In this document: positions 12,140 to 60,865 of the stretch, in pieces | How positions within the stretch are numbered: the first letter of the stretch is position 1 | How the letters are laid out: each line of letters begins with the position of its first letter | Assembly (NCBI GenBank): GCA_964650545.1 | Contig: CAZYTZ010000001.1 | Span: 23,686 to 87,685 of the forward strand | Direction of reading: 5' to 3' | Source of the DNA: Candidatus Micrarchaeota archaeon | Lineage (GTDB): Archaea; Micrarchaeota; Micrarchaeia; Anstonellales; Anstonellaceae | DNA: 64,000 nt | Position numbers and translations under genes: made by a program | The notes under the pieces: generated by a model | The model's input: only the letters and a program-made list of their open reading frames with translations | Told to the model about the DNA's origin: nothing | Database searches by the model: none

Positions 12140-12147
12140 TCGCCCAC

Positions 12148-14571: not shown

Positions 14572-14584
14572 CTCCTCCTCAAAA

Positions 14585-17962: not shown

Positions 17963-17973
17963 CTCAAACACCC

Positions 17974-25337: not shown

Positions 25338-25483
25338 GCCTACCTTATGCGCGCCAGAGCTTATAATTGTGCCTATTTGCTCTACTAGTCATAGTAGGCA
25401 AACCTATTTATTCCCCTACCACCACAAAACACAACACAGGACAACAGAAAGGGAGGAACAAAAAACAAAACGAGGTGGTTGGG

Positions 25484-27457
25484 ATGATAAAGGGCATTCG
25501 CGGAGAAGCAGCAATCAAGGTCGATAGAAAGAATCCGATGAAATATGCAAAATTCATGATTGTGAAGGTTGAAAATGATGAATTCTATACCAAAGACATT
25601 CTTATCGCCAGGCCACAATCAACACACCCAGTTCACAGAGATATCCTTGCCATGGCTGAGCGGGTCTTTCAGCGTGGCGGAAAAAAGGTAGTCGGGAACG
25701 GCAAAGGCGGCTTCCTGAGGCTCGATAAGGGAACAAAGACTATCGAGATATCTGGAAGCAGCGAACAGTTCGGCATGGCGGACGCCACGCTTGTTGAGGG
25801 AATATTAAAAAGAAACTTTCCTGACTATAGGATAGGGGCCATTGCCAAAGAAGAGGAGGCTGCACCTGCAAAAAAGCAAATCCTGACTCCCGTGCAACTT
25901 TTCAAGATTGTCGTGTCGCATCCTGTCGAGGAGGAGCGGGGCAAAGCCGCGGTAAAATTGGTTGAAGACGCCTATAGAGAACAGGAAACATATAGTGGTT
26001 ATGGCGGGTCTTTGAAAGGCGGAATTGCAAAGAACGACCTGAGCGAGATTAAGCGGCTCATCTTCTATACATCATACGAGAGAGTTGCCCTTCTGGACCG
26101 AATCGCCAAATGCAAGGAATTCCCAGCAGAGGCAAGGGAGCTTGCGGGGATGAGATTGGTCGAAAAGGCCGATTTCGACGGCATAATGTATATCGTCAAT
26201 AATGCGAAGTTTCCTGCAACCGTGAGGGCTGCTGCAAAGCAAAAAACCTGTACTGCTGCACTGGACGATGTTATAGAGACAGCTAGGTATGGCAGGTATG
26301 ATGGTCTAATGGCAATTGCCAGAAACGAACAGCATTACGCTCGGCCAATAGAAGCAAGAGAGGAGGCAGGCATAAAATTAGTAAACGCCACAGCAAGCGC
26401 AACAGGACAAATAATCGAAATAGAGAGGCTAGAACGTTATGCAGGTTTTTGCCCGCGGGAAAATTTAACTAGGTTGAAGGAGATCGGCAATGACCAAAAA
26501 ATGCCGAAAAAGGTTAGGGCTGCTGCTTTGGATGCCATAGTGCCCATGGGCTTAAATTGGGTCAGATATTTTGTGAAACATGAAAATTGCAATGGCCTAA
26601 CCGAGCTGTCAAATAACGCAGAGTTTCCCGAGATTGTCCGTAAAGCAGCGGAAAACGGAGTCGAGGCAGCCAAAATCAAGCATGCCGAATCGCGCGTTAA
26701 AGGCATTAGGAGATGTAGGTTCGCGTCTCATGCCACCGGGGAGCTTATGGAAATCGCGAACGACCTAGGCTTGCCGGAACAAACAAGGGACATGGCAGAG
26801 AAAACAATCGGGCCAACTGCCAGATATTACATCGACCGTGCCACTGGTGAGGGGGACTACGGTATACTCCTAGACGTTCTGGATTGTGCAAAACTGCCAC
26901 AGGCAATCCGGGAGCTTGCAAAGGAGAATCTGGACACTGCAATCAAAAACTACTACGAAGACAAAGACAAAACAGGGCGTATGTGTGATGTTAAAAACGG
27001 TCTCGACACCGTAGATCCAAGAGTAATCGAAACTCTTGGAAATCTGTACGTTGATTATCTGGCCGGATGTCAGCAGTGGGAGGTTGTTGGAGACCTCCTA
27101 AAAATCGCTAACAACGCCAATATGCCAGAAAGCGTCAGAACAGCGGCCCATAATGCGGCGGACAAGGTTGCCGGGCGTGCCTTTGATGGCAGATGCGGCC
27201 GCATAGAAGATTTAGAAAAGCAAAGAGACATTGCCAATGGAGCCGGTTCATTCGAAATACCGCAAAAGTTCATCGAGACTGCCAAAAAGAACCTTGAGCC
27301 AGCAGCGTCAGACCTTATCGAGAGATATGTCAATGAGGGCGACTATGGGCGCTTGGGATGGCTAACTGGTGATAATTGGCCGGGGGAGATTAGGCTAGCG
27401 GCTAAGAAGGGCATGGAAAGATGCGCAATTAATCTGGCAAGCCAACAAAACGATTGA
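25484..27457 (+). CDS. HEAT/PBS-lyase-like repeat protein (about 657 aa) with an unknown N-terminal domain.
   Basis: It has repeated ...N(N/D)A(K/E/N)(F/M/L)P..VR.AA... units (NNAKFPATVRAAA, NNAEFPEIVRKAA, DCAKLPQAIRELA, NNANMPESVRTAA, DNWPGEIRLAA). The start is placed at ATG 25484 with a gaggtgg SD. Confidence 0.55.
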   Translation: MIKGIRGEAAIKVDRKNPMKYAKFMIVKVENDEFYTKDILIARPQSTHPVHRDILAMAERVFQRGGKKVVGNGKGGFLRLDKGTKTIEISGSSEQFGMADATLVEGILKRNFPDYRIGAIAKEEEAAPAKKQILTPVQLFKIVVSHPVEEERGKAAVKLVEDAYREQETYSGYGGSLKGGIAKNDLSEIKRLIFYTSYERVALLDRIAKCKEFPAEARELAGMRLVEKADFDGIMYIVNNAKFPATVRAAAKQKTCTAALDDVIETARYGRYDGLMAIARNEQHYARPIEAREEAGIKLVNATASATGQIIEIERLERYAGFCPRENLTRLKEIGNDQKMPKKVRAAALDAIVPMGLNWVRYFVKHENCNGLTELSNNAEFPEIVRKAAENGVEAAKIKHAESRVKGIRRCRFASHATGELMEIANDLGLPEQTRDMAEKTIGPTARYYIDRATGEGDYGILLDVLDCAKLPQAIRELAKENLDTAIKNYYEDKDKTGRMCDVKNGLDTVDPRVIETLGNLYVDYLAGCQQWEVVGDLLKIANNANMPESVRTAAHNAADKVAGRAFDGRCGRIEDLEKQRDIANGAGSFEIPQKFIETAKKNLEPAASDLIERYVNEGDYGRLGWLTGDNWPGEIRLAAKKGMERCAINLASQQND

Positions 27458-27687: not shown

Positions 27688-29070
27688 TTAACCTTTCCTG
27701 TCCTTGACATATCTCGACGACCGGTAGCTTCCCAGCCTCTTCAATATCCCCTGCGCCACCAAATCATTAAGGTAACGGATTGCAGTCGGGTGCGAGTAGC
27801 CAATCAATTTGGCATATGCTGGGGCTGTTAGCGTTTCGTGCTTTTCCAGATAAGCCAATGCCTTCTGCTGCATCTCGCTAATCTGGCCATAGGGCTTTGA
27901 TACGCGGTCGGAAAGCGAGCCATAGAGGACAACCCGGAAGAATCCGCCCAAATCATCGAAAACCGGATCTGGGAGGCCGTTCTGGCGCATGATGCGGTAT
28001 ATCGCCCGCACGCCCAAATTCAGCCCTTCGCCCCAGCCAGCATCGTTGAGAATGCGGTGCAGGACCGGATTGCGGTGGCGGCGGATGTCAGCGAAGTTCT
28101 TGAGGGTCTGTCCTGGGAGCAGTGTACCTGGGCTGGTGATTTGGATGCGGTCGTCGAATATCTCGACTAGGATTCCGTTCGGGTCGAAATAGTCGCGGTG
28201 GCCGACTGCGTTTGTGAGGGATTCACGCAGCGCCATGTCCGGGACCATTGGCATCTCGACCCGTTTCCCATCCACCACGCGAGCCGAAAAGCCGGCCTTC
28301 TCCCGGATGGCCTTGAATGCCTTCTCCAGAAGCTCCGGGGCGGTGTCGCTGAACCGCTGGTCGGATTCACGGGCCTCCAGCGTGGCAGTCCGACCCTTGT
28401 ATTTGACTACGCGGATTTCGGTGTTTGAAAAGAAGCGCGAAATGTCCTTGGCGAACGCAAGCACCCCAACATTCTTGACGTAGAACTCCCCTACGCTATT
28501 GGCGACCCCCAAGCTCTGCAAAAGGGTATCGGTGGGCACCCCGTCCATATCTGCAGGCTTTCCAGTCCGCTGGGCAACGTGCTTGCTGACCTTCTGCATA
28601 TCAAGATCCAAAAGTCTGGCCTGGGAGCGGTTTTCCTCGAATGAGATGATGCCGCGTGCCCGGAGGAAGCCCACCAGCTCGTGCTTGCGGATTTCCACGT
28701 TGACCGAGCCTTGGCGGACATAAACCCCTTTCTCGAAGAAGCAAACCTGGTCTATGGGCAGGGCGGTGACGTTGGCTATCAGGACATGTTTGCCCTCGAC
28801 AGTGTGTTCCTCATAGGTGACTGTCGGCTTTGGCTCAAGCAGCGGCAGGATGGCGGCCATTTTCTGGTATGCCTCGTCCTTGGCAACGCCCGCCACGGCT
28901 GTTTTGCTGTCTGTCCTTTCCACTCCAAGGACCAAAAGCCCGCCGCCTGAATTGGCGAAAGCGCAGACTGACCGGCCAACGCTCTCGTTGAAATGGGCGG
29001 ATTTCTTGAACTCCAGCCTGGAGCCTTCCTCTTGGGAGAGGAGGGCGGTTACGTCGCCTTTGGAAAGCAT
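27688..29070 (-). CDS. Putative ATP-dependent DNA-binding regulator of the AlbA_2 (Schlafen, AAA_4) + HATPase-like + C-terminal HTH family.
   Basis: It has the N-terminal AAA_4/AlbA_2 motif (EGSRLEFKKSA...VCAFANSGGGLLVLGV) and a C-terminal wHTH (AIRYLNDLVAQGILKRLG). Confidence 0.55.
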   Translation of the reverse strand: MLSKGDVTALLSQEEGSRLEFKKSAHFNESVGRSVCAFANSGGGLLVLGVERTDSKTAVAGVAKDEAYQKMAAILPLLEPKPTVTYEEHTVEGKHVLIANVTALPIDQVCFFEKGVYVRQGSVNVEIRKHELVGFLRARGIISFEENRSQARLLDLDMQKVSKHVAQRTGKPADMDGVPTDTLLQSLGVANSVGEFYVKNVGVLAFAKDISRFFSNTEIRVVKYKGRTATLEARESDQRFSDTAPELLEKAFKAIREKAGFSARVVDGKRVEMPMVPDMALRESLTNAVGHRDYFDPNGILVEIFDDRIQITSPGTLLPGQTLKNFADIRRHRNPVLHRILNDAGWGEGLNLGVRAIYRIMRQNGLPDPVFDDLGGFFRVVLYGSLSDRVSKPYGQISEMQQKALAYLEKHETLTAPAYAKLIGYSHPTAIRYLNDLVAQGILKRLGSYRSSRYVKDRKG

Positions 29071-39778: not shown

Positions 39779-40408
39779 GTGAAAACAAGGCTTTTTATGC
39801 TTTGCCCCGCCAATAGCTTCATGGAAAGCGTTTTCGAGCGAAAATTCGGGCTGGCAAAGGCGATTCTTTCCGATGTAGCAGATTGCGTAGACTGCCAGTT
39901 GATACTGGTTGGCGGCACCGCCCTCACGCTTTTCTACCTTCAGCACAGGGTGAGTGTGGACCTGGATTTTGTCCCTCTGTCAGGTGACGATGTTTCCGAG
40001 GCAAAACAGGCGCTCAAAGGATGCATGAGCAAAAAAGGCTACACAACGCAGCGCGCAAGGTGGCACAACCAGTTCGTCGTATGGTCAGAAACCACAAGCA
40101 TCAAGGTGGAGGTTTTTACGCCAGATGAAAAAGTTGCAAAAACGGAAAAGCGCGTTTATGGCGGCAAGGAAATGCTCGTGGCATCGCTTGATGATTTGCT
40201 GAAAATGAAAACACTGGCATTTTCACAGCGGGGCAAGGCGCGCGACCTGTTCGACGTGGTGGCAATTCTCATGAAGACGGGCAAAAGCCTCTCTTTTGCA
40301 GAAGAACTGGTGAAAAAGTGCGGCATTCCGCAAGACACGGAAGAACTTGAGCAGATGGCTCCGGACAAGACTGTGCTTGATGCATTCTATAAGGTGATTA
40401 GAAAATGA
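39779..40408 (+). CDS. AbiEii/DUF1814-like nucleotidyltransferase (toxin-like).
   Basis: It has LILVGGTALTLFYLQHRVSVDLDF, which matches the GGTAL...R.S.DLDF nucleotidyltransferase signature. It starts with GTG, with an alternative ATG at 39797. Confidence 0.5.
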   Translation: MKTRLFMLCPANSFMESVFERKFGLAKAILSDVADCVDCQLILVGGTALTLFYLQHRVSVDLDFVPLSGDDVSEAKQALKGCMSKKGYTTQRARWHNQFVVWSETTSIKVEVFTPDEKVAKTEKRVYGGKEMLVASLDDLLKMKTLAFSQRGKARDLFDVVAILMKTGKSLSFAEELVKKCGIPQDTEELEQMAPDKTVLDAFYKVIRK

Positions 40409-41055
40409 AACCTATTACGGGACAGGCAATAAGCTTTGCACAGCTTCGCAAGGAAGGTAACAGCCGCAAGGCAATTCGCGACATGCTGGCAAGGCTGCTG
40501 ATTTTCCCAACCCCTTTCAAGGGCATCTATTACATTCCCACGCAGGACGAGCGCGGCGGTTGGCTTCTCAAAAGGCCAGAGCTTGCCCTCAAGCAGGCAA
40601 TCGCCATCTACCTTGGCACGGACAACTTCTACTATTCCTGCAAAACCGCGGAAGAGCATTTCGGGATAGACTGGCATCGCTATGGGCAGGTGCACGTTGT
40701 GAACCCCGTGCGCTCAGGAAGGATAAACCTGAAAGAGCGAATTGAGCGCAACAGGAAGAAGAAAACATGGAGGGCAAAGCAGGTCGCGCGCATACTGGAG
40801 TTCTACGGCAATGAAATTGTTTTCCACCGCGCGGACGAAGAGAGCATAAAGAAAGCAAAGCTGAAACGCACGCCCTTCGGCGATTACGCGCTTCCCTCGC
40901 AGATAAAAAAGGACAGGAAGCGCTTCAGAGAGAAAACAAACGACGCTTCCAATGGAATAGCCCTCTCCATCGAAAAAGCAGGTAAGGCGCACATCGAAAA
41001 GCACGGCTTCAGGAAGATGTCCCTTCGTGAACTGGACAGGCTTACAAAAAAGTGA
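40405..41055 (+). CDS. AbiEi-like wHTH protein (antitoxin-like) that overlaps the upstream nucleotidyltransferase gene by 4 nt.
   Basis: It has the RLL...KGIYYIP pattern typical of AbiEi N-terminal domains and a basic C-terminal tail. An aaggtga SD lies upstream. Confidence 0.4.
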   Translation: MKPITGQAISFAQLRKEGNSRKAIRDMLARLLIFPTPFKGIYYIPTQDERGGWLLKRPELALKQAIAIYLGTDNFYYSCKTAEEHFGIDWHRYGQVHVVNPVRSGRINLKERIERNRKKKTWRAKQVARILEFYGNEIVFHRADEESIKKAKLKRTPFGDYALPSQIKKDRKRFREKTNDASNGIALSIEKAGKAHIEKHGFRKMSLRELDRLTKK

Positions 41056-41061
41056 TGGGCA

Positions 41062-42630
41062 CTAGCCTTTCCTCGTTTTTGCACACGATAGTGAAAATAT
41101 GCCCCTCTCCAGCCTTCCCTTCTTCTCAAGCTCACCTGCCACGTAATCAAGCAGCATTCTTTTCACGCGCATGTACTCCTCCCTGCTTACCGACTGGTTG
41201 AGGACAGCGTACCTTGCGCCTTTCAGGTTGAAGCACAGTATTCCTTCCTCCACATTCTCGCAGTTGTGGCAGAAGTAGCAGTTGCGGCACTTGAAAGAGC
41301 TGTCAGTCTCAAGGCACTTGTTGCACTGCGTTGGATTGTAGCAGTTTATCAAAAACTCGCAGTTGAGCGTGCGATAGTAGCCCCCGAAAATGTACTTTGA
41401 CTCAGTCACCAGCGTGGAATAGCCGGAAAGCATGGAGTAGAACGAATACCAAAGCCTGTGCACGCTTGTGGAGTCTGCAGCAGCAGGCGTCTCTGAAATC
41501 TCCAGATTCCTCCCATCGCGCTTTTCGCAGGTGAAAACCGCAATCTTGCCCGCGCGCTCAGCAATCTCATCAAGCGAGGGCGTTTCTCCTTCCTTGAGCG
41601 CTATTTTCATCTTTATCGCAGAGGCAAGTGCCTCATCAAAGGAGGCAAGCCTGGCTGCAGGCACCTTGCCAATGGTTGGAAGTTCTGTGCTGTAGGTTGG
41701 CGAGCCGAACATTCCCTTGATTTTCTTTATTTTCATGGTTTTCTCAGTGAGCCAGCCCTCGCATTTCTCAGGAGAGCCAACCTCTTTTCCAATAACCACC
41801 CTACAGCATGAGGCAAATGCTTTTTCCACGCCTTTGGGGGGCTTTGCGATGATCTGCTCCCCGTTTTCCTCCTTGCTTGCGCCAACAAGGTCCACAATGG
41901 AAAACAGCCTCTTGTCTTTCTTCAGCTTTTCAGCCATTTCGGCCACAAGCTTTTCCTTAAGCGCCAAGTATCTCTCCTTTGTGAGCTGCAGGTTGCCAAT
42001 GCAGTGGTTTTTGCCAAGCAGGTTGAAGCTGAACATGATATCATTGGAGCCGCTGCAGTTGTACGCATAGTAAGCGCCGGAAATTCCCGTGCTTGCGTAA
42101 GTCTCAAAGCAGCGCGCAGCGCCATGGTTGTTCGGCCCTGCGCACCAGGCACAGCGAATCGAGTTGTTCACGCCCCTAAAGCCGCTCACTCCGTAAATGC
42201 TTTCCGAGTACCTGCCAATGGAGCAATAAGCCACGTACTTTGAGCTGTAGACATCGTACGAATCATGCACTTCCACGCAGTCTGCTATATTGTCGCCGCT
42301 GCCCAAGCCAATGTTCTTGCCAAAAGTCTTGTTGCCGCAATAAACCGCGCGCTCTGACGCTGCGGAAAAAAGCGAGTCAATGTCCTTTATGTCATTGATG
42401 TTCATTGGCGCGAATTTGACCTCTGCAATCTCCTCCTGCGAGGCATATTTCGCTCCCTTGGGGTAGTATGGGCCTGACAAGCAAACCTGCTTGCCAGACA
42501 CACACGAGCGCTCCACTGAGTAAGGAAAGAGCATTTCGGAAAGATAAGGCGCGAATTCTTTCAGCTCGCCTACCTCAGAGCCGAACAGAAGCCTGCAGGT
42601 CTTCTTGAAATCAGCGTTAATTTTTCCCAT
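41062..42630 (-). CDS. Cys-rich hypothetical protein, paralog 1 (522 aa), internally duplicated.
   Basis: It is a paralog of 44658-46241 and 46242-47813. It has the conserved N-terminus (KKTCRLLFGSEVGEL) and a C-terminal module (CNKCLETDSSFKCRNCYFCHNCENVEEGILCFNLKGARYAV). Confidence 0.7.
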   Translation of the reverse strand: MGKINADFKKTCRLLFGSEVGELKEFAPYLSEMLFPYSVERSCVSGKQVCLSGPYYPKGAKYASQEEIAEVKFAPMNINDIKDIDSLFSAASERAVYCGNKTFGKNIGLGSGDNIADCVEVHDSYDVYSSKYVAYCSIGRYSESIYGVSGFRGVNNSIRCAWCAGPNNHGAARCFETYASTGISGAYYAYNCSGSNDIMFSFNLLGKNHCIGNLQLTKERYLALKEKLVAEMAEKLKKDKRLFSIVDLVGASKEENGEQIIAKPPKGVEKAFASCCRVVIGKEVGSPEKCEGWLTEKTMKIKKIKGMFGSPTYSTELPTIGKVPAARLASFDEALASAIKMKIALKEGETPSLDEIAERAGKIAVFTCEKRDGRNLEISETPAAADSTSVHRLWYSFYSMLSGYSTLVTESKYIFGGYYRTLNCEFLINCYNPTQCNKCLETDSSFKCRNCYFCHNCENVEEGILCFNLKGARYAVLNQSVSREEYMRVKRMLLDYVAGELEKKGRLERGIFSLSCAKTRKG

Positions 42631-42657
42631 AGATAAGCCTCCGTTTTCGCTGATGCG

Positions 42658-43455
42658 CTATCTTCCCCGCGGCAGTGTCCAGAACACCTTGGCATCAAAT
42701 GTTGGCTTTTTGCCGGGCTTCATTCCAAGCCTTACGTCTGGCATGCCCCACTTTTTGGTAGGAAACTGGAAGCCAAGCCTGATATCTGAAATTTTTCCAC
42801 CACTAACACTCGCCCCGATATTGACCCTGGCACCTTTGCCATTCCGAAGCGCGCTGCCAACGCTTCCGCCATATTCAGTGATTTTTCCATCTGAGAGGAC
42901 AGCGTAGCCGCCAATGCCAGCCACCTTGCCTCCAAATGACCTGCGCGCCTCAAATGCTGTCCTGGCAGAAGCCTTGCCAAAAACATTGTCAACCTGCTCT
43001 CCAATGGAAACCAGCATTTTGTCAGTGTGGATTATGTTTGCCTGCGCGGCAAAGCCTGCCTGCCCCAGTGGTCTGTCCGTCGAAAGCGTAGCGCCAACAG
43101 CTGCTTTTCCGCCAAAAATCTTTTTCGAAGCGTACAAAGTTGCGTTTCCTTTGCCATCAAACGGCTGATTGTAAACAAGGTCCACGCAAAAGCCTCCTGG
43201 CAGCTGCTGGTTCACCTGCAGCACTCCTGTGCAAGTTTTGCCCTTCATGGTAAATGCGAGCGCCTGCCAATCGCCTGTGTAAAGGAACCATGTCGGCATG
43301 ACGAAAACTCCCTTGAATGACAAGTTGGGATACATCGCAATCTTTTCTTTCTTGGCGGGCAGCGTGTCCTGCTGCTGTGCGTTTGCCTCCTCAGAAACAA
43401 AGGGCGACGCGATAATTACAAAAGCGCTGATGAAATTTGCAACGTTTCTTACCAT
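42658..43455 (-). CDS. Secreted beta-rich Gly-rich protein (265 aa) with an N-terminal signal peptide.
   Basis: MVRNVANFISAFVIIASPFVSEEANAQQ is followed by alternating-hydrophobic beta-strand-like repeats (GGKVAGIGGYAVLSDGKITEYGGSVGSAL...). Confidence 0.5.
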   Translation of the reverse strand: MVRNVANFISAFVIIASPFVSEEANAQQQDTLPAKKEKIAMYPNLSFKGVFVMPTWFLYTGDWQALAFTMKGKTCTGVLQVNQQLPGGFCVDLVYNQPFDGKGNATLYASKKIFGGKAAVGATLSTDRPLGQAGFAAQANIIHTDKMLVSIGEQVDNVFGKASARTAFEARRSFGGKVAGIGGYAVLSDGKITEYGGSVGSALRNGKGARVNIGASVSGGKISDIRLGFQFPTKKWGMPDVRLGMKPGKKPTFDAKVFWTLPRGR

Positions 43456-43535
43456 ATTTCCACCACTTATAACTTCTTTCTGATGCCCATTGTATATATA
43501 AATTTGTGGTAAGTTAAAACACCACAGATGGGCTT

Positions 43536-44654
43536 ATGGTGGGCGAAACTGAGGCGCTGCAGGGGCTTGGCTTGACGGCAAACGAGGCCAAGCTCTACCT
43601 TCTTCTCCTTAAAGGCGGAAAGGCAAAGGCGACTGACTTGGCGGCCAAAAGCGGCATGCACAGGCGCGTGGTCTACGACACGCTTGCGCAGCTTGAGAAA
43701 AAGGGCATGGTTGGGCAGGCGTCGGTCGGGGGCGTGCTCACTTTCACTCCCTCGCCCCCTTCCTCTCTCCTGTCTTTCCTTGACGAGAAGCGCGACTCAA
43801 TGGAAAAGGTACTGCCTGAGCTTAGCCGCGCCTTTGAGTCGGAAAAATCAGCGTCAGCGTCAGTAATGCACGGCAGGCAAGGCGTGAAGACAATACTTGA
43901 AGACATTTTAGCGCTTCGCGCGAACTACTGCGTCTACTACGGGCAGATGCAGATCTACGACCTGCTCCCCAAGTTCATGCCAATCTTCAATGAAAAGAGA
44001 AAGCGGCTTGGCATCAAGGGAAGACACATATTGCTTGACACGCCGCTGGTGCGCGAGCGGGCGGCAAAAATCCCCTTCACAGAGTCAAAATTCATTGACC
44101 CATCCTCACCATCGCCTGGCGTGTGGTGGACTTATGCTGACAGACTGGTGCTTATTTTATGGCACGACGAGCCCACAGTCATTCTCATAAAAAGCGATCC
44201 GCTTGCCAAGACATTCAGGAGCACCTTTGACGCGGAATTCAGCTCGAAAACCGCGGTCTTCCGAGGCGACGAGGGCATGAAGGCGATTTTTGAGCAGACT
44301 CTTGACTACAAGGAAACGCTTTTCATTGGCGCAGGAGGGCAGGCGTCAGAGCGCTACAATGACTATTACGTGAAAAGCTTCATACCTCGCGCGAAAAAGA
44401 CAGGCCACAAGTGGTATCTGCTTTCGCACCCGCGCATACTTTCCAGGCCTGCCTCAAAGTACCCGATGAGCATAGTCCGTCTGCTCCCGCGCGACTGGGA
44501 GTACTCGCCGAATGTGGTCTGGATTTACGGCAACTTCGTGGCAAACGTGGTGTGGCTTGACGAGCCTGTCGCGTTCGTGGTGGAGGACAAGCACGTGGCT
44601 GACGCCTACCGCGAGTACTTCTGGCTGCTTTGGAAATTGGCAAAGAAAAAATAG
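43536..44654 (+). CDS. TrmB-family transcriptional regulator (372 aa, full-length type with a C-terminal effector domain).
   Basis: It has the N-terminal wHTH (LGLTANEAKLYLLLLKGGKAKATDLAAKSGMHRRVVYDTLAQLEKKGMV). Confidence 0.65.
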   Translation: MVGETEALQGLGLTANEAKLYLLLLKGGKAKATDLAAKSGMHRRVVYDTLAQLEKKGMVGQASVGGVLTFTPSPPSSLLSFLDEKRDSMEKVLPELSRAFESEKSASASVMHGRQGVKTILEDILALRANYCVYYGQMQIYDLLPKFMPIFNEKRKRLGIKGRHILLDTPLVRERAAKIPFTESKFIDPSSPSPGVWWTYADRLVLILWHDEPTVILIKSDPLAKTFRSTFDAEFSSKTAVFRGDEGMKAIFEQTLDYKETLFIGAGGQASERYNDYYVKSFIPRAKKTGHKWYLLSHPRILSRPASKYPMSIVRLLPRDWEYSPNVVWIYGNFVANVVWLDEPVAFVVEDKHVADAYREYFWLLWKLAKKK

Positions 44655-44657
44655 CCA

Positions 44658-46241
44658 TCACGCTTTCTTCGCCCGCGCAATGCCATAAATGCCAATTGGG
44701 CAATCATGCTTCTTCCCAAGCGAGGACAGGATTTCCGAAAGAACGAGCTTTTTCACGCGCGCAAATTCCTCCTTTCCAACTTCTGAGTTGCCAATCGCGT
44801 ACCTCAGGTTCTTCACGTTGAAGCAGAACATGGAATCATGCACGTTCTCGCAGTTGTGGATGAAGTAGCAGCCCGTGCAGTTCTGGGAAGTGTCAGCCTC
44901 GAAGCAGCGCGAAAGCTTGTAGGAGTTGTAGCAGTGGATGCAGAAGCTCGAGTTCCTCGTGGCGTCAATGCCGAACATGTGGTCGCAGTCGCGCGGCCAG
45001 CAGGAATACGCGCAGTCCTTTGCATGGTACGCCCTGCTGCAGCAAAGCACGTTGTTGCCAAAGTGCACGGTGGAGCACTCTGCGGCATTGGTGGTGAGTA
45101 CAAATTCCTCTGTGGAGAAAACGGCAACCGGCGAAATCAGCTCGCCGATGCCTGATAGCGATATTCTACCTGCCGATAGGCTCTCAGGCACTTGCCTGGT
45201 CTGGCAAATCCCATGAAGCTCCCAAAGCTTCACCACCCTGCCCTTTGCCGCCAAATCATGGTCAATCGCATAGCCCCCAAGATAGACTGCCTCGCCGCTT
45301 GCCGCAGACTTCACGCTGCTGATGTTCCGAGTGTACTTCGTGAGATAGCCCTTGAAATCCCTCACGCTGCCAAGCTTCCTGCCAAGCACCACATTGCACG
45401 CCTCGTCAAACGCCGTTTGCACCTTGCTTTCGTCAAACGCTGGCGCAGGGCTTTTCCTGGCAAGCTTCGGAAGGCGCGGGGCCTGCTTTGGCAGCAGCTC
45501 AAGGATTGATGGCGCGCGCCCCTTTGCCTCAAGCTCATCCGCAATGTCTGAGAGCAGCTTCTTCTTCACGCGCGCGTACTCGCTTTCGCTTAGCTGTGCG
45601 TTTCCCACCATGCGCCTCTTTCCCATCAGGCCAAAACAGAACATGCACTCAGTGCAGCCGTCAAGGTAGTAGGAATAGGCAATGTCGCTTGACTCATAGA
45701 CTCTTTGGCAGCACAGGCACCTGGCAGTCCTCCACGTGTTGTGTCCCCTGATGTTGTGTATTGACTCGCCAATCACCGAGCTTCCGAACGAGGACTTGAC
45801 CTCCCTGCCGATGGTGCAGTAAGCCAAATCCTGTGAAGTGTGGAAGGTATGGCAGCCAAGCACATAGTGGCAGTCCTCCATGCCCGTGCTCTCCTCCGCG
45901 TGCGAGGAATTGCCAAGTATCGCATTGCCGCAGAAAACCGCGCGCTCGCCAAGCGCAGACTGGATGGAGTCAATATCCTTCATTTCATTGAGGGAGAGCG
46001 GCTCAAATTTGCGCGAGTAGTCCACCTCGTCAAAGCTGATGAACGGCGCGCCTTGCGGGTAGGGGCCCACTGCCACCACCTCCTTGCCCGAGCGCGCTGA
46101 CTTCCTTTTCTCAAACGGCTCCAGCGATTCGCAGAGCCATCCCTTGTAGCGCGCAAGCTCGCCGATTTCGCGCCCGAAAAAGAGCCTGCATGTGGACTGC
46201 CACTTGCCGTTCAGCCTGCTGTAAAGTTCAGTGTCACCCAT
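44658..46241 (-). CDS. Cys-rich hypothetical protein, paralog 2 (527 aa).
   Basis: It has the paralogous N-terminus (WQSTCRLFFGREIGEL) and C-terminal module (CIHCYNSYKLSRCFEADTSQNCTGCYFIHNCENVHDSMFCFNVKNLRYAIGN). Confidence 0.7.
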   Translation of the reverse strand: MGDTELYSRLNGKWQSTCRLFFGREIGELARYKGWLCESLEPFEKRKSARSGKEVVAVGPYPQGAPFISFDEVDYSRKFEPLSLNEMKDIDSIQSALGERAVFCGNAILGNSSHAEESTGMEDCHYVLGCHTFHTSQDLAYCTIGREVKSSFGSSVIGESIHNIRGHNTWRTARCLCCQRVYESSDIAYSYYLDGCTECMFCFGLMGKRRMVGNAQLSESEYARVKKKLLSDIADELEAKGRAPSILELLPKQAPRLPKLARKSPAPAFDESKVQTAFDEACNVVLGRKLGSVRDFKGYLTKYTRNISSVKSAASGEAVYLGGYAIDHDLAAKGRVVKLWELHGICQTRQVPESLSAGRISLSGIGELISPVAVFSTEEFVLTTNAAECSTVHFGNNVLCCSRAYHAKDCAYSCWPRDCDHMFGIDATRNSSFCIHCYNSYKLSRCFEADTSQNCTGCYFIHNCENVHDSMFCFNVKNLRYAIGNSEVGKEEFARVKKLVLSEILSSLGKKHDCPIGIYGIARAKKA

Positions 46242-47813
46242 TCAATTCCCCTTCCCAGTGATGTTGTAAATGCTCCTTTTATAGTCGTGCGTTTTTTCAA
46301 GCGATGAGGTTATCTCCGCCAGCAGCAGCCTCTTGGCTTTCTCGAATGCCTCCTTGCCCACTTCAGAGTTCCCGATTGCATACCTGAGGTTTTTCACATT
46401 GAAGCAGAACATGGAATCGTGCACATTCTCGCAGTTGTGGCAGAAATATGAGTCGGCGCATTTGCTGCAGAAGTCCAATTCAAAGCAGCGGTTCAGGCTG
46501 TCTGAATCATAGCAATTGATGCAGAATTGGGAGTTTGAGAGCCTGCCGCCGCCGAATGCGTACTTGGAAGTAACAAGGTACAAGTTGTATGCGCCGTATT
46601 CTGACTTGTATGCTGATGCCTTGTAAAGGAAAGAGGAATCCACTGCTGCCAACGTTTCTATGGCGCCGTGGCATGTGCCTTCGAACATTTCATCTGTGAA
46701 GTACCCAATTTTGCCGAGTGAATTTCTGATGGATGCTAATCCAACAATTTCACTCTCATCAAGATGCAGGCCTTCCAAAAATGGGGATTCTTCGCTTGAA
46801 ACAACCCTTTTGTCAGGCATCAGCGAATAAACCGGGTAGCATTTGCCTGGAAGGGCATACGCCTTGTTTCCAAATGGAGTGGTAAATTCCCGCAGCGAAC
46901 CAACATGCTTTGAAAGCCATTTTTCATACTGCCGTATGTCTCCAGGTTCCTTCTTGAAAAGAATCCTGAATGCGGACGCAAACGATTTGTTGATTATTCC
47001 AATGTCTCCTTGCGCTTCCTTGATTTTCATTGCTGGGGCAGTTGGCAATGCAGTTTCCTTGTTTGGCACAAGTTCAAAGATGGAAGGGAATTTCTTCTTC
47101 CTCTTTAGCTCATCCCTTGATTCCCCGACGATTTTCTCCTTCAGGGCTTTGTATTTGTCCTTTGGCAGCTGAAGGTTTCCAATCCTGTAGCTCTTGTTCC
47201 TCTGATTAAAACAGAAGAGCAGGTCATGGGAGTTCATGCAGGTGGCGCAAAAATAGAGGTCGCTGCAGCTTATGGAAAGCCTGGTTTCAAAACAGCGCCT
47301 GAAGTCAGAGCATCTTACGCACCTTATTGCGAATTCGCCGTTGTCCGAGCGGAGGCTGCCGAATATGCTGCGGCTGTTCGTGGTTATGATGGATGACGCA
47401 TAAACATAAGACGAGCCCTGGATGGTTGTCGAGCCTGACACATATGCCGAGTCCACAACAGCATCAGATGACTCCACAAAGCGGGAGTTGTCCAGAATCT
47501 TGTTTCCGCAATATTCCCACTTTTCTGATATTGCCTCCATTATCGAGTCAATATCCTTGACTTCATTGATTGAAAGCGTGGCAGCCTTGCCTCCTGTCTC
47601 TTCCAATGAAACGAACTTTGCGCTTTTTGGGTAATCTGCGCAGGCAAGCACCACTTCCTTGCCGGAAACGCTGGATTTTTCCCTTGCAGTGGCAGCCATG
47701 TACTCTTCCAGCCAAGCCCTGTAATCTTCCAATTTGCCTATCTCTTCTCCAAGAAGTAGCCTGCACGTGCTTTTCCACTGCCTGTCAAGACGGCTGTACG
47801 TCTCGGAAGGCAT
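46242..47813 (-). CDS. Cys-rich hypothetical protein, paralog 3 (523 aa).
   Basis: Its start is 1 nt after the stop of paralog 2. The C-terminal module is CINCYDSDSLNRCFELDFCSKCADSYFCHNCENVHDSMFCFNVKNLRYAIGN. Confidence 0.7.
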   Translation of the reverse strand: MPSETYSRLDRQWKSTCRLLLGEEIGKLEDYRAWLEEYMAATAREKSSVSGKEVVLACADYPKSAKFVSLEETGGKAATLSINEVKDIDSIMEAISEKWEYCGNKILDNSRFVESSDAVVDSAYVSGSTTIQGSSYVYASSIITTNSRSIFGSLRSDNGEFAIRCVRCSDFRRCFETRLSISCSDLYFCATCMNSHDLLFCFNQRNKSYRIGNLQLPKDKYKALKEKIVGESRDELKRKKKFPSIFELVPNKETALPTAPAMKIKEAQGDIGIINKSFASAFRILFKKEPGDIRQYEKWLSKHVGSLREFTTPFGNKAYALPGKCYPVYSLMPDKRVVSSEESPFLEGLHLDESEIVGLASIRNSLGKIGYFTDEMFEGTCHGAIETLAAVDSSFLYKASAYKSEYGAYNLYLVTSKYAFGGGRLSNSQFCINCYDSDSLNRCFELDFCSKCADSYFCHNCENVHDSMFCFNVKNLRYAIGNSEVGKEAFEKAKRLLLAEITSSLEKTHDYKRSIYNITGKGN

Positions 47814-47817
47814 GGAA

Positions 47818-48774
47818 TCACTTCACCATCAATAACTGCGCGAGCAATGCCTCAATCTGCAGCGTTTCGTTCGCGCCTTCCACGAGGCGGAAGTTGTACT
47901 CGCCAATCTTGTCCACAATCATGACTTTCTGGCGCTCGTCGACCGAGAGTTGGTCAACTGTTCTATACATCTGCAGAAGAACATCCTCGCCGCTCATTCC
48001 GTATTCCACCATGAGCTTGTGAAGCTTTTTCCTCGCGTCAATGAACTTGCGCGCGAGTGCCAGCTCCATCATCTCCTTAATCTCAGCAGGCTCTGCGCGC
48101 GACGCACTTTTGTATACCATCTCAGAAGTTATCTTTTTGCCGTGCATGGATGCGCCCTGAAGTGCGTTTATTGCGCGGCGCATGTCGCCTTCTGAAATGT
48201 AAAGGAGCGCCTCCACTGCCTTTTCGTCAACAGTGAGGCTCTCCTCCTTTGCCACCCTGGAAAGCATGTGCTTCACTTCGTCTTCCTGAAGGGGCCTGAA
48301 GCGAAAAACTGAGCAGCGCGACTGTATTGGCTCGATGATTTTGGAAGAGTAGTTTGCAGACAGTATGAAGCGCGTCACTTTCACGTACACTTCCATGGTA
48401 CGCCTAAGCGCGTTTTGCGCGTCATTGGTAAGCGAGTCTGCCTCATCCAGGAAGATGATTTTGAAGGGAACGGACTCCAGGGACACAGTTCTTGCAAAGT
48501 CCTTTATCTTGCCGCGTACCACGTCAATGCCGCGCTCGTCCGATGCATTGAGCTCAAGTATGCAGTCGCGGTAATTCTCACCGTACAAGTCGCGCGCAAG
48601 CGCAATGGCGGCCGTTGTCTTGCCAATGCCTGGCGGGCCTGCGAAAAGAAGGTTGGGCATGTTCTTTTCCTTCACGTATGCTGCAAGCAGTTTCACTATG
48701 TCTTTTTGCCCCACAATGTCAGGAAGCGTGCGCGGGCGGTACTTCTCAGTCCAGGGTATGTAGTCTGCCATCAT
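47818..48774 (-). CDS. rfcS: Replication factor C small subunit.
   Basis: It has Walker A (GPPGIGKTT), the DEAD-like motif (IFLDEADSLT), SRC and the C-terminal domain, with no intein. Confidence 0.9.
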   Translation of the reverse strand: MMADYIPWTEKYRPRTLPDIVGQKDIVKLLAAYVKEKNMPNLLFAGPPGIGKTTAAIALARDLYGENYRDCILELNASDERGIDVVRGKIKDFARTVSLESVPFKIIFLDEADSLTNDAQNALRRTMEVYVKVTRFILSANYSSKIIEPIQSRCSVFRFRPLQEDEVKHMLSRVAKEESLTVDEKAVEALLYISEGDMRRAINALQGASMHGKKITSEMVYKSASRAEPAEIKEMMELALARKFIDARKKLHKLMVEYGMSGEDVLLQMYRTVDQLSVDERQKVMIVDKIGEYNFRLVEGANETLQIEALLAQLLMVK

Positions 48775-55155: not shown

Positions 55156-55968
55156 ATGAAGATACAGAAATCGATGCGTTTCGGCGAGCAGGAGGTAAAA
55201 CTGCTCTTCGCGCTTGAACAGGGAAAGAGCCCCGTTTTCACGATAGCGCAAGCGCGCAAGGCGCTTGGGACGACTGACGCCTCGGTCAAGAACGTCCTTT
55301 CACGCCTGAAGAGGAAGAAGCGCGTCATTCCTTTGCAGCGTGGGGTTTACCTGTTTGCGCCCCTCAAAAGCGGGCAGGAAGGGCAATGGACTGAAAATGC
55401 TTTTTCTGTTGTGCCTTACCTCGCTGGAACTGGCAAATATTATATCGGATTTGCCGCTGCGATGAACTATTGGGGCATGACAGAGCAGCTGCCCCTGACA
55501 GTGGGCATTGCGATGGAGAGGCAAAAAAAGCCCGTAAGCGCAGTACAGTCGAAATTTGTATTCGTGGCAAAAAAGCGCCTCGGGGATTATGAAAAAATCT
55601 CCATAGCGGGCACGAATGTCAACATCTCTTCGGTTGAGCAGACTGTGCTTGATGCGCTGGCTTTCCCCGAATACTGCAACGGGATTGAGGGGGCGGCCAA
55701 GGCGGTTTGGAGCGCAAGAAATAGCATTGACTGGAAGAAGCTCTCTTTGCTTGCGAAGGCAGGGAAAGGCGCGGTGCGGCAAAGGCTGGGCTATCTGCTC
55801 GAATTGCTGGGGCTGGAAAAGCGCGCAAAAGCAATTGAGGGCAAGTTTGCCGGCTTTTCCTGGCTTGCCCCCAATGCCCAAAAAGCGGAATTCCAATACT
55901 CGAAGAGGTGGGGCTTAAAGATTAACCTGAAAAAAGAGGATGTGCTTGAATTCCAGAGGGGATACTGA
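55156..55968 (+). CDS. AbiEi-family antitoxin-like wHTH protein.
   Basis: The N-terminal pattern LSRLKRKKRVIPLQRGVYLFAP matches the AbiEi N-domain. It lies immediately upstream of the AbiEii gene and overlaps its start. Confidence 0.55.
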   Translation: MKIQKSMRFGEQEVKLLFALEQGKSPVFTIAQARKALGTTDASVKNVLSRLKRKKRVIPLQRGVYLFAPLKSGQEGQWTENAFSVVPYLAGTGKYYIGFAAAMNYWGMTEQLPLTVGIAMERQKKPVSAVQSKFVFVAKKRLGDYEKISIAGTNVNISSVEQTVLDALAFPEYCNGIEGAAKAVWSARNSIDWKKLSLLAKAGKGAVRQRLGYLLELLGLEKRAKAIEGKFAGFSWLAPNAQKAEFQYSKRWGLKINLKKEDVLEFQRGY

Positions 55969-56726
55969 TGGATTTGACTGAATTGAGGAAAAGGGCGATG
56001 AAGGAAGGCATACCTCTGGCAATAATGGAGAAGGATTACGCGCTTTCCGTTGTGCTTCTTGAATTGTCAAAGACTGCCCTGAAGGGCAATTCCTTGTTCA
56101 AGGGTGGCACGGCAATAAAGAAAGTCTATTTTCCAAATGCAAGGTTTTCCGAAGATTTGGATTTCACTGCGCCGAATATGAAACAGGATGAAATAACGCA
56201 CGCGCTGAAAACCATGCTTGAAAACAAGGAGATTCTTGGCATCCGGTTTGGCACCCTTGAGCACGAGAAGACGGGCGCAGGGCTTCGGCTGTCAGTCAAA
56301 TTCTCAGGGTTCCTTGAGCAGCCACAGAGGATACGCTTTGACTTCAGCTTCAGGGAAAATGCAGTCTTGCCGCCTGTTGAAAAAGAAGTGATTGACAGCT
56401 ATTCGCTTGGCAAGGCAGGCATACGGACCTTGCAGGTGGAAGAATTGCTTGCCGAGAAAATCCAGGCGGCATTTTCGCGCACGGTTGCAAGGGACCTGTA
56501 CGACATTTGGTTCCTGCTGAACAACGGCGTCAAATTGGATGTCGCGCTTATCCGCAGGAAATTCGCGTATTACAACGAAAAATACGAACCGGAAAAGCTG
56601 GAAGGCAGGCTCAATGGCTTCAAGCTGAAATGGAATCAGGATTTGGGGCAGTTCCTGAAAGAGGTGCCTGCATTCGAAATGGTCGGAGCGGACGTGCTGA
56701 AGCAACTTTTAGGGCAAAGAGGATGA
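55968..56726 (+). CDS. AbiEii/AbiGii-family nucleotidyltransferase toxin (DUF1814).
   Basis: It has LFKGGTAIKKVYFPNARFSEDLDF, the canonical GGTAL...RFSEDLDF motif. Confidence 0.65.
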   Translation: MDLTELRKRAMKEGIPLAIMEKDYALSVVLLELSKTALKGNSLFKGGTAIKKVYFPNARFSEDLDFTAPNMKQDEITHALKTMLENKEILGIRFGTLEHEKTGAGLRLSVKFSGFLEQPQRIRFDFSFRENAVLPPVEKEVIDSYSLGKAGIRTLQVEELLAEKIQAAFSRTVARDLYDIWFLLNNGVKLDVALIRRKFAYYNEKYEPEKLEGRLNGFKLKWNQDLGQFLKEVPAFEMVGADVLKQLLGQRG

Positions 56727-58416: not shown

Positions 58417-59519
58417 TCAGGCGTGCTTGCTAGAAAGCAGAGCGAGGGCCTTTTCATGCGGCGCGTCCGTCCTCAACGCTGTCGGGCAAAAGTGCGTGCG
58501 CGAGGCACAAAAGCCTGCCTTGCGCAATTTTTCCACAGCATCCTCAATGGGCAGTATCTTGCAGCCCCTCTTTTTCGCAACCTCGTGCAAGTCATAGTAG
58601 CCAATGGACTTCACGCCAGCTTCGTCGCTTACAGTGCGCAGCAGCTTTTCAATCTCTTTTGCTTTTGAGTATTTCCTCTCTGCATTGAGCGACAGCATTC
58701 TTTCAACAAGCACAGCATCCCAAAGCTCGCCTAGGTAAAGCTGGCCGCCGATCATAAGCTGCGCGCCGCAGTGCGGGCACTCTTTTTGAAGCGGCAGCCG
58801 CTTCCCATCGCGCCACTGGCAGGAGGGGCAGTAGGAAACATAGCCTATTTTTTTCATCGCCTCAACTGCTTTCACTGCGCCTTCCTCAACTTTGAAAAGC
58901 ACCTTCACATAGTGGCGATGCGACAGGGTGAAAATCGGCGTTGCAGCCAAATTCAGGGGCGCAAATTCCCTTACCACTGCAGCCGACAGTATCCTGCACG
59001 CATTCTCATGGCAAAACTCGTTGTTCAGAGGGGCTGCGGCATAATTCTTCAGGCAGGCTGCGTGGTGCGCGCCGCAAAGCACTGCGACGTCAGTGGCAGT
59101 TGCGGATAGATAGCCTCCCCTGTTGGCGGCAAGGCAGCGCGCGGCATCATGCAGGAACGGCTGCGGCGAGCCAAACGGGTCCAGCTCCACAAACCCGGAT
59201 GCATTCTCCCGCAAAAACTCGTTTGCATCAGAACAGGCAACGTTGCACTTCACCTTGTTTTTCACAGCATTTTTCTTCGCGCACGCGGCTGCTTGCCTGC
59301 TGGCATCCACAAGCGCCAGTTTGCCAACATTCCTGTTCTCAAGCTTGTAGCGCAAGCCACGCACGCCGGACGCGCACATGGCATCCACAACATCAACTTT
59401 CCCGCCAATCGCGCCTACTGAAAGCGAGAAAAGCGAGCGGCAAAGTTCCATCTGCGGGTTGTAGAACACGCCTGATGCCAGCGCGATTTTCACCTTCCCC
59501 TCCGCAATGGTGGCTGCCA
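58417..59519 (-). CDS. trm1: tRNA (guanine26-N2)-dimethyltransferase Trm1.
   Basis: The internal ATG gives MAATIAEGKVKIALASGVFYNPQMELCRS..., the canonical Trm1 N-terminus. It has the SAM-binding region and a C-terminal CPSC...CPHCG zinc ribbon. The ORF-track GTG extension to 60006 overlaps aroA and is rejected. The start coordinate is within ±1 nt. Confidence 0.8.
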
Positions 59520-59611
59520 TGTGGGCTAATAGCAAACAAAGCAATAAAAAAGCGCCATGATGCGCTTTTTTAGATTTGGAATTGCCAGTTCCAAAGTAAT
59601 AAAAAATACCC

Positions 59612-60865
59612 ATGCGTCTCACTAGCATGCAAGCAGAGATACGCCGCTCTATCATCTCAGGCTCAGCCCAAGCGCCGCCAAGCGCGCCTCTTTCCCACCG
59701 TGCCATTGTGCTTGCCACTCTCTCGCCCGGGCAGACGCAAATATCAGGCATCCCCTCCCTGCCGGGCATGCAGGCAACAATTTCTGCCTGCCGCGCCTTG
59801 GGCGCGGACATCGTCCAGTCAGGAGCCATTGTGGACGTCTTTGGGCCTGAGGGGCTTGCGCAGCCTTCCGAAGTGGGCTGCGCAGACAGCAACACCACTC
59901 TCAAGTTCATGCTGCCGCTTTGCGCCTCGCTTGGCTCTGAGATGAACATCACGGCATCCAGCAGGCTTTCAGGCGCAGACCTGTCGCCATTCCTTGACTT
60001 TCTCACCGAAGCGGGCGCGCAGGCATCTCAAAGCGTGTCATTCCCCGCCCGGGTGAAAGGGCCCATTTCACTGGAGGAAAAGCTCTATCTCGGGGGGTTG
60101 GGCTCGCAATTCCTGTCAGGCCTGCTTCTCTGCGCGCCGCTGCTTCCAGGCGGCTCGTCAATCGGAATTGAGGGTGGGGTGCCTGGCTGGCAATATGTGA
60201 GGGAGACAATGATAATGATGAAGGAATATGGCATTGAGTTCTACTCTGACACACATGACTTTCTCTCCTTGCCAGGCGGCCAGGTCTATTTGCCGCCTGA
60301 GAACATACGTGTGCCTGCCAGCTCCTATCTTTCCTCCTTCCTTCTCCTCGCAGGCGCGCTTTCAGGCAAGGCAACCCTAAAGGGAAGCTGCGACTGGCAG
60401 TCGCACGACCACATTTTCCGCGCATTTGGCGCAGGCGTAACCATCCGCAAGCACGAAATCTCGGTTTCCGCAGGCTCGCTTTCAGGAATTGAGCTTGAGG
60501 CAGAGGAAGCGGGATTGCTGCTTCCTCACGCAATAGTCCTTGCATGCGCATCATCCGGCGAAACAAGTATAAGCGGCCTCGCGTCAGTGCCGCGCCGCCT
60601 TCAGGCGCGCGTATCCAAGCTCTGCCGCGAGCTTGGCAGGATGGGCGCAAAAATCACAGAGGAAAAAGGTGGTCTGTCAATAACAGGGGGAAAATTGGCC
60701 GGCGCCAAGGTGACTCCTGACGGTGATGCAGCGGTGGCAATGGCTGTTGCGGCAGCTGCAGTGTGCGCGTCCGGGCCCACCGCAATAGATGGCGCGGAGT
60801 GCGTGGAGCGCACCTACCCGAACTTCTTCCGCGACCTTGTTTCGCTTGGCGCGATTGTAAGGTAG
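59612..60865 (+). CDS. aroA: 3-phosphoshikimate 1-carboxyvinyltransferase (EPSP synthase).
   Basis: It has the N-terminal LSHRAIVLATLSPGQTQISG motif and is 417 aa with the two-domain inside-out alpha/beta fold pattern. Confidence 0.85.
   Translation: MRLTSMQAEIRRSIISGSAQAPPSAPLSHRAIVLATLSPGQTQISGIPSLPGMQATISACRALGADIVQSGAIVDVFGPEGLAQPSEVGCADSNTTLKFMLPLCASLGSEMNITASSRLSGADLSPFLDFLTEAGAQASQSVSFPARVKGPISLEEKLYLGGLGSQFLSGLLLCAPLLPGGSSIGIEGGVPGWQYVRETMIMMKEYGIEFYSDTHDFLSLPGGQVYLPPENIRVPASSYLSSFLLLAGALSGKATLKGSCDWQSHDHIFRAFGAGVTIRKHEISVSAGSLSGIELEAEEAGLLLPHAIVLACASSGETSISGLASVPRRLQARVSKLCRELGRMGAKITEEKGGLSITGGKLAGAKVTPDGDAAVAMAVAAAAVCASGPTAIDGAECVERTYPNFFRDLVSLGAIVR

Follow-up and report, generated by a model that had tools for sequence, protein, structure and literature searches.

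To our knowledge, beta-helices with coils of 12 residues are so far known from insect antifreeze proteins only. In the antifreeze protein of the beetle Tenebrio molitor (Protein Data Bank (PDB) entry 1EZG), the coils of such a helix follow the consensus TCTxSxxCxxAx. SufB/SufD, an Fe-S scaffold, is a heterodimer of paralogous beta-helix proteins with a Cys/His site at their interface. Here we describe a family of Cys-rich archaeal proteins that resembles each of these systems in part. It is represented by three genes, named A, B and C, in a stretch of 64,000 nucleotides (nt) from Candidatus Micrarchaeota archaeon (assembly GCA_964650545.1, contig CAZYTZ010000001.1, positions 23,686 to 87,685), called the window below. 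A, B and C appear to have diverged long ago within a family of soluble cytoplasmic proteins that has not been described before. The explanation that we tentatively prefer, at somewhat less than an even chance, is that these proteins are soluble, pseudo-heterodimeric beta-solenoids with 12-residue coils, in which one conserved Cys/His/carboxylate centre would probably bind metal or be catalytic and a second, variable site would provide specificity.

All three genes are intact open reading frames (ORFs) on the minus strand: A at 41062-42630 (522 amino acids, aa), B at 44658-46241 (527 aa) and C at 46242-47813 (523 aa), with a spacing of 0 nt between B and C. A preliminary description of this DNA had proposed that they are paralogous along their whole length, and pairwise alignment bore this out (33.0-37.2% identity end to end, E 2e-86 to 2e-101). 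The N-terminal motif that it listed is indeed shared, in the form W(K/Q)STCRL(L/F)(F/L)G.E(I/V)G.L, and its C-terminal motif (...RCFE...FCHNCENVHDSMFCFNVKNLRYAIGN) is closely followed in B and C, with I replacing C before H in B, but occurs as a variant in A. C comes from the best-conserved clade of the family and scores 755 bits against the family hidden Markov model (HMM). None of the three proteins has a signal peptide or a transmembrane segment, and their ORFs cannot be extended upstream. Their isoelectric points of 7.7-8.5 led us to reject the idea of a DNA mimic. A profile search with the family HMM found no fourth member in the window; two sets of candidates were discarded, the 529 aa ORF at 58417-60006 being Trm1 and the ORFs of ~250-270 aa at 55156-56726, considered as half-size members, being an AbiE pair.

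The preliminary description could assign no known family, and our searches agree. When A, B, C and 39 relatives were scanned against Pfam, NCBIfam and PADLOC, no family match emerged, and sequence searches of the PDB with 3- and 39-sequence profiles yielded nothing beyond a borderline match to a phycobilisome linker. The label "methanogenesis marker protein 9", carried by one relative at JGI, was set aside for want of statistical support. The literature searched, which concerned the genomes of Micrarchaeota and DPANN archaea and families of hypothetical proteins, contained no description of the family.

Paired modules with a 12-residue coil

Each protein consists of two related halves. Every N-half of A, B and C aligns with every C-half, over stretches of ~236-259 residues that are 22-29% identical (E 1e-15 to 1e-28). 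The internal duplication noticed in the preliminary description is thus real in every protein, but its unit is the whole half of ~255 aa and not a module of 150 aa; in C, the N-type module spans residues ~1-255 and the C-type module residues ~270-523. The two module types also exist as separate genes. In many genomes half-size genes (~255-265 aa) adjoin fused ones, always as an N-type gene followed immediately by a C-type gene, the stop codon of the first overlapping the start codon of the second. Bilamarchaeum has three consecutive N-C pairs, and a strict N,C,N,C,N,C alternation next to fused genes was seen at locus L002 (13143-17789) and also at L017, L011, L057 and L068. Two longer relatives, P0050 and P0108, have the three-module arrangement N-C-C and contain no foreign domains. 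Because its halves also occur as adjacent N-then-C gene pairs, the fused protein can be regarded as a covalent pseudo-heterodimer, and the family displays natural fission and fusion of this assembly.

AlphaFold2 models of C were confident overall, with predicted TM scores (pTM) of 0.84 from 39 sequences and 0.87 from 114 sequences. The same order of elements was predicted in both halves: a helical hairpin, a small sheet with a helix, a Cys/Ser-rich stretch and a 22-residue helix. The Cys/Ser-rich stretch was poorly structured in the models, and confidence was lowest there (pLDDT, the per-residue confidence score, 64-81). As a check independent of AlphaFold2, we ran mean-field direct coupling analysis (DCA) on 385 sequences. 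Of the 64 strongest couplings within the two Cys/Ser-rich regions, 31 joined residues exactly 12 apart, 40 fell at separations of 11-13 and eight at 6; elsewhere in the protein none of the top couplings was at separation 12. Autocorrelation of the profile peaked at lags 6, 12, 18 and 24 (z up to 8.5). It is the couplings at separation 12, together with these peaks, that lead us to read both regions as beta-solenoids with 12-residue coils. Residues of inward-facing type recur at every third position, the early coils showing V/S/V/S and the late coils C/C/L/C. A 9-residue repeat, which had been our first impression, was replaced by this 12-residue coil with its 3-residue lattice.

Longer-range couplings indicate how the elements pack. 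Each head helix runs along its own solenoid (couplings 12-149/151, mirrored by 277-420), and each head hairpin sits on its own terminal helix (23-237, 21-233, 302-514). Between modules, the N-head is coupled to the solenoid end and helix of the C-module (62-519, 91-497, 94-431, 94-445, 76-471, 85-432), and reciprocal couplings connect the other pair of surfaces (203-343, 215-350, 175-348). Coevolution and the AlphaFold2 models agree on a predicted module in which a helical head is followed by a solenoid of 12-residue coils and then by a long helix, and two independent lines of evidence give this structural part of our proposal good support. In the arrangement that we envisage, a helical hairpin and a small sheet would form the head, a very narrow solenoid would follow, and the long helix would return to the head; two such modules of ~255 aa would lie head-to-tail, so that each head touches its partner module at the solenoid end and at the terminal helix.

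Judged by repeat geometry, the closest structural analogue is the beetle antifreeze helix. Both have 12-residue coils with small inward residues (Cys, Ser, Ala) at every third position, and the couplings at separation 6 in the archaeal family would correspond to contacts across a coil. On the other hand, the family lacks the Thr-x-Thr ice-binding face, secretion and the single disulfide per coil of the beetle protein, and shows no sequence or fold match to it. The left-handed hexapeptide beta-helix of acyltransferases and gamma-carbonic anhydrases differs: its Pfam model PF00132, for the hexapeptide [LIV]-[GAED]-x2-[STAV]-x, matched 0 of 39 members, the family coil has 12 rather than 18 residues, the small residue recurs at i+3 rather than i+4, and the family forms a pseudo-dimer rather than a trimer. 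SufB/SufD offers a likeness of organisation, with two paralogous modules (helical, beta-helix, helical) that make a heterodimer with one asymmetric Cys/His site. This is an organisational analogy only; the family matches neither the core model PF01458 nor the SufB/SufD structures.

One further resemblance concerns the heads. In searches of PDB sequences the C-module head (profile positions 260-373; residues ~269-369 of C) matched the REP domain of ApcE, a phycobilisome linker (PF00427, 3ohw), at E 0.006, and a helix motif of the type ...(Y/F)xxxFxxxxxxxxxxxxE..L is found in both. The hhalign probability was 42%, and the isolated heads matched nothing in Pfam at E<=10. We did not adopt an identity as phycobilisome linker on the strength of so borderline a match.

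Conserved site, variable site and cysteines

Conservation is distributed very unevenly between the two modules. Information content peaks at residues 451-480 (2.9-3.1 bits) and 76-90 (3.0 bits), and is lowest at residues 301-360, at 376-405 and in the inter-module linker. The first peak falls in the hallmark Cys/His core, which reaches the family maximum (2.8-3.1 bits). In C this core comprises residues 431-482 (46368-46523, minus strand), with the pattern CxxC...RCFE.D..CxxC.....CHNCE.......CFN.K......GN, and forms the final coils of the C-module solenoid; its counterparts are at 44787-44942 in B (roughly residues 434-485) and at 41197-41352 in A (roughly residues 427-478), both on the minus strand. 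The A core differs from that of C by indels of +3 and -3 residues and has AVLN in place of AIGN. A stretch of 31 aa in the core is identical between B and C, although its DNA is 87% identical and differs at 12 of 30 third positions. This divergence in the DNA speaks against gene conversion between B and C, which we rejected, and protein identity in spite of it indicates purifying selection on the stretch.

Across 160 full-length relatives (effective number of sequences ~110), the most conserved residues of the C-module are H459 (0.96), N460 (0.99), E462 (0.99), C470 (0.97), N472 (0.97) and K474 (0.98), and E445 and D447 also belong to its near-invariant polar residues. In the N-module head, K86 (0.94), D87 (0.93), D89 (0.90) and S90 (0.88) stand out; they lie in the motif ..LSINEVKDIDS.. 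(residues ~78-90 of C; 47543-47582, minus strand), which is coupled to the core and tail helix of the C-module. The two conserved regions are thus linked by DCA, and no part of the protein varies more than their pseudo-symmetric counterpart, in which the C-module head is paired with the end of the N-module solenoid. By analogy, such an asymmetry is typical of pseudo-dimers in which one site works and the other is degenerate or provides specificity, and we infer a similar division here. The working site would be composite, with K86-D87-x-D89-S90 from the N-head meeting E445, D447, H459-N460-x-E462 and C470-x-N472-x-K474 at the end of the C-solenoid, and it would probably bind a metal ion or carry out Cys/His chemistry common to all paralogues. 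The variable site would probably give each paralogue its own ligand or partner.

The preliminary description counted about 16 ordered, conserved Cys per protein and took them to suggest several metal or Fe-S sites. Cys are certainly abundant, with 20-28 in each window protein and a family median of 21, but the count of conserved ones was overstated. Only C470 and H459 are near-invariant among Cys and His. C431, C434, C443 and C452 are Cys in 0.79-0.87 of relatives, and C449, C458 and C461 in 0.62-0.76. Most Cys columns of the N-module lie at 0.32-0.62 (column 195 at 0.79 and C17 at 0.82), and the conserved His is found in the C-terminal copy only (96%), along with the core that prefers Cys strongly. 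Replacements are mostly Ser, Ala or Thr, which together with the absence of a ferredoxin-type motif argues against multiple Fe-S sites; at most positions they occur in 13-60% of relatives.

The regular spacing of the Cys is explained by the 3-residue inward lattice of the 12-residue solenoid. Every Cys of C between residues 422 and 470 falls on a single such lattice, and the C-module has four CxxC pairs spaced 9 or 18 residues apart. In A, residues ~439-454 (443-458 of C) show a 3-residue insertion followed by a 3-residue deletion within the Cys core, and both indels keep the lattice. Most Cys are rungs of the narrow solenoid core; in the proposed structure they would face inward in the last four to five coils, with some sets cross-linked by disulfides or by a shared metal. 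The pairwise behaviour of Cys columns, some of which come and go jointly in evolution, would fit such links: columns 62 and 520 co-occur (phi 0.70; among clusters at 50% identity, both are present in 20, neither in 33, and 4 are mixed), and further coupling was seen for 17-452 and within the set 434/443/458/467. The 62/520 pair is absent from the window proteins.

Distribution, regulators and neighbourhood

A word-indexed search with C returned 838 relatives, all named "hypothetical" and none with a Pfam domain; the few that carry organism names are from Micrarchaeota (Anstonella, Bilamarchaeum, Anstonellaceae). When 1.84 billion cluster representatives were searched exhaustively with the profile, 1972 clusters (counted at 50% identity) scored at E<=1e-3, of which 338 were at E<=1e-30, and 417 matching stretches were found among one genome per GTDB species. 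The best 74 loci all belong to Micrarchaeota or to metagenome-assembled genomes classified merely as "archaeon", three of them labelled "ainarchaeum sp.". Among the matches listed (the best 150 of the 1972 clusters and the best 80 of the 417 genomic matches), the family is restricted to Micrarchaeota. No copies were found on viral contigs.

The preliminary suggestion of an undescribed, tandemly amplified and regulator-linked family was supported well beyond the window. About 230 family genes lie in 75 non-redundant loci, in tandem arrays of up to nine genes. Copies per genome, given as lower bounds, range from 2 to 12, with at least six in 15 of the 19 genomes grouped. Full-length proteins form at least 12 clades at 40% identity, and because these recur across genomes the paralogues must be ancient. 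Regulators of three helix-turn-helix (HTH) families (HTH_10, double-AsnC and TrmB) stand within 1 kb at 40 of the 75 loci, and paralogues or arrays may be under their own HTH regulators.

Three kinds of context recur. At some loci an HTH_10 regulator and an array are followed by a convergent ATPase of DUF87/HerA/TrwB type and then by a PALP enzyme; at others a divergent double-AsnC regulator stands beside a single fused gene; and in the window and the related loci L061 and L053 the order is RFC, one or two family genes, TrmB and another family gene. ATPases with DUF87/TrwB/TraG-D_C domains were found within 3 kb at 30 loci and within 1 kb at 25, mostly at the array end; 22 of 26 were on the opposite strand. 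They match generic HerA, FtsK, VirB4 and mad8 models only, and the 64 kb window contains no such ATPase. A small CxxCxxCC protein with a putative zinc- or iron-chelating domain (PF03692) was observed upstream of arrays at four to five loci (L013, L028, L029, L043, L047).

The TrmB-type regulator of the window was correctly recognised in the preliminary description. Its gene (43536-44654, plus strand, 372 aa) matches PF01978 with 50.9 bits (cutoff 25.6; 1.4e-13), is convergent with B and divergent from the operon of A and the 265 aa ORF upstream of it, and is syntenic in L061 and L053 with orthologs 76-77% identical. It is not a sugar-sensing TrmB/TrmBL equivalog, since the NCBIfam models TrmB, TrmBL1 and TrmBL2, whose cutoffs are 500-650 bits, scored 15-39 bits and aligned with the N-terminal 100 residues only. 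A single dedicated TrmB regulator is not supported: HTH regulators adjoin many loci, but TrmB itself is specific to the sublineage of the window, and double-AsnC or HTH_10 takes its place elsewhere. The putative divergent promoter region (43456-43535, 80 nt) contains a TATA-like box, TATATATAAA, at ~43494-43503 and, between this box and the TrmB start codon, an inverted repeat GTGGT-N10-ACCAC (43507-43526) that is a candidate autoregulatory operator.

On the other side of this promoter, 27 nt upstream of A, is the 265 aa ORF (42658-43455, minus strand). As stated earlier, its N-terminus resembles a signal peptide when read from the letters alone. The protein has 3 homologues in 5.8 billion proteins, is 33% identical to the product of the equivalently placed L053 gene, matches nothing in Pfam or PADLOC and is absent from other family loci. 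Such an orphan does not qualify as the secreted part of a conserved system, as which it had been put forward.

Upstream of C, the gene for the RFC small subunit (47818-48774, minus strand) has its stop codon 4 nt ahead of the ATG of C, an adjacency common to L061 and L053. Given this short gap, and B directly after C, RFC, C and B probably form one transcript. The surroundings are archaeal housekeeping genes (ABCE1, Pelota, RFC small subunit, IleRS, enolase, CysRS). We compared the island in the window (41062-47813) with L061 (9200-16680) and L053 (1760-9504). In L061, the closest relative, identity is 78-93% for the housekeeping neighbours, 76% for B and 57% for A, and the gene at the position of C is a different paralogue (38% identity). 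The A ortholog of L053 is 62% identical, and this locus has one family gene and an extra AsnC2 regulator at the RFC-Pelota island. These uneven identities, and the exchange at the position of C, make the island a site of paralogue turnover.

Several other features of the window may be recorded here. Beside gene A, at 39779-41055, an AbiEii nucleotidyltransferase (39779-40408) overlaps a 216 aa ORF without Pfam match; an AbiE pair at the island is seen in the window only, not in L061 or L053. A canonical pair of AbiEi (55156-55968) and AbiEii (55968-56726) is located farther along. Three consecutive minus-strand ORFs of 1621, 807 and 1158 aa (7274-18061), with no Pfam match at E<=0.001, may encode giant lineage-specific proteins. 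A 696 aa protein (25367-27457) matches both Janus/Ocnus (PF05005) and UPF0147, and a 460 aa protein (27688-29070) has Schlafen AlbA_2, HATPase_c_4 and HTH domains.

Competing explanations and significance

A multi-centre Fe-S or zinc redox protein, in which some 16 ordered Cys ligate several clusters, is the alternative closest to the preliminary description. The sheer number of Cys, the four CxxC pairs, the sets of co-occurring columns, the full set CCCCCCHCCC as commonest pattern of the C-core and the PF03692 protein next to arrays all speak for it. Nevertheless we consider it unlikely, since the solenoid lattice accounts for the Cys order without clusters, C470 and H459 alone are near-invariant, the N-module lacks the His and most of its Cys columns are Cys in about a third to three fifths of relatives, and one full-length member manages with 10 Cys. 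The 39 members contain no match to Fer4, radical-SAM or zinc-finger Pfam models, nor to any Fe-S family of Pfam or NCBIfam at E<=0.1. They differ from ferredoxin-type proteins also in that the presumptive ligand Cys are not all invariant, and from zinc-binding CxxC repeats (DnaJ CxxCxGxG, zinc ribbons) in having neither a domain-model match nor Gly-rich knuckles. What survives of the earlier idea is a possible metal or redox role, with which the strong preference of the last C-module coils for Cys over Ser or Ala, the conserved His and carboxylates among these Cys and the co-occurrence of several Cys columns across many clades are consistent. At the opposite extreme the proteins could be pure scaffolds or adaptors without chemistry, their Cys being small core residues, their conserved patches inter-module interfaces and their paralogues assembly blocks. 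The interchange of C, S, A and T at most core columns fits this, as do Ser and Val at the same inward registers of the first coils and the tandem paralogue arrays, which are typical of structural subunits. It is hard to reconcile with a Cys preference of ~80% over isosteric Ser specifically in the last coils, or with an exposed His, three carboxylates, two Lys and several Asn that are 94-99% conserved across clades less than 40% identical, which exceeds the normal need of an interface; and since head and helix cap both solenoid ends, end-to-end polymerisation is disfavoured. We hold a pure scaffold to be as improbable as the multi-cluster protein.

The neighbourhood invites two further explanations. 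The diversified paralogues might act as effectors or sensors alongside the HerA/FtsK/VirB4-like ATPase, either for defence or for transfer into a host cell, as the frequency of this ATPase near arrays, its PADLOC matches to mad8 and HerA, the fast or heterogeneous turnover seen against L061 and the AbiE toxin-antitoxin genes beside A would allow. Against such a conflict or host-interaction module, which we judge quite improbable, stand the orientation of the ATPase and its absence from the window, ancient paralogue clades kept across the phylum, the lack of viral copies and of secretion signals, and the apparent co-transcription of C and B with RFC. PADLOC is unconvincing as well: one of the 39 members matched one model (E 0.007), and the neighbours in the window gave weak HTH-type matches only. 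A secreted or surface-associated module acting with the 265 aa protein, also raised in the preliminary description, has in its favour the position of that ORF directly ahead of A and the gene at the same place in L053. It seems to us extremely improbable for proteins that have neither signal peptide nor transmembrane segment nor room for an upstream extension, and whose would-be partner is an orphan.

The pseudo-heterodimeric solenoid with one conserved centre, which we still prefer, has difficulties of its own. AlphaFold2 confidence is lowest exactly in the predicted solenoid cores, and the proximity of the conserved residues in space rests on coevolution, not on distances. The conserved polar patch could be an inter-module interface instead of an active site. 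Several core Cys are Ser, Ala or Thr in 13-38% of relatives and cannot all be obligatory ligands; shared ancestry can inflate the co-occurrence of Cys; no homology to any metalloprotein or enzyme was detected; and adjacency of regulators is no proof of regulation. A bolder version, possible but in our eyes doubtful, is that the family constitutes a new class of soluble metalloprotein or thiol enzyme, with a Cys-ladder solenoid pseudo-heterodimer fold unseen in solved structures, one conserved centre, a hypervariable site and a dozen or more regulated copies.

Whatever its activity, the family has so far been neither annotated nor mentioned in the literature searched, and none of its relatives has a solved structure. 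It would provide a clear natural example of gene fission and fusion in a pseudo-heterodimer, and the 12-residue beta-helix would gain a representative among cytoplasmic archaeal proteins. Micrarchaeota have genomes of ~1 Mb, yet many of those sampled carry the 1.6 kb gene at least 6-12 times, often with a transcription factor of its own beside each copy. So costly a family in so small a genome is likely to be central to Micrarchaeota biology. If the bolder version were true, a dozen or more copies would take up ~1-2% of a genome of roughly 1 Mb, and the family would be a major component of Micrarchaeota physiology that has escaped notice until now, for instance one that handles metals or sulfur or processes scavenged substrates. 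Should the conserved Cys/His centre prove to be metal-binding or catalytic, it would define a new class of enzyme or metalloprotein and offer a handle on DPANN physiology.

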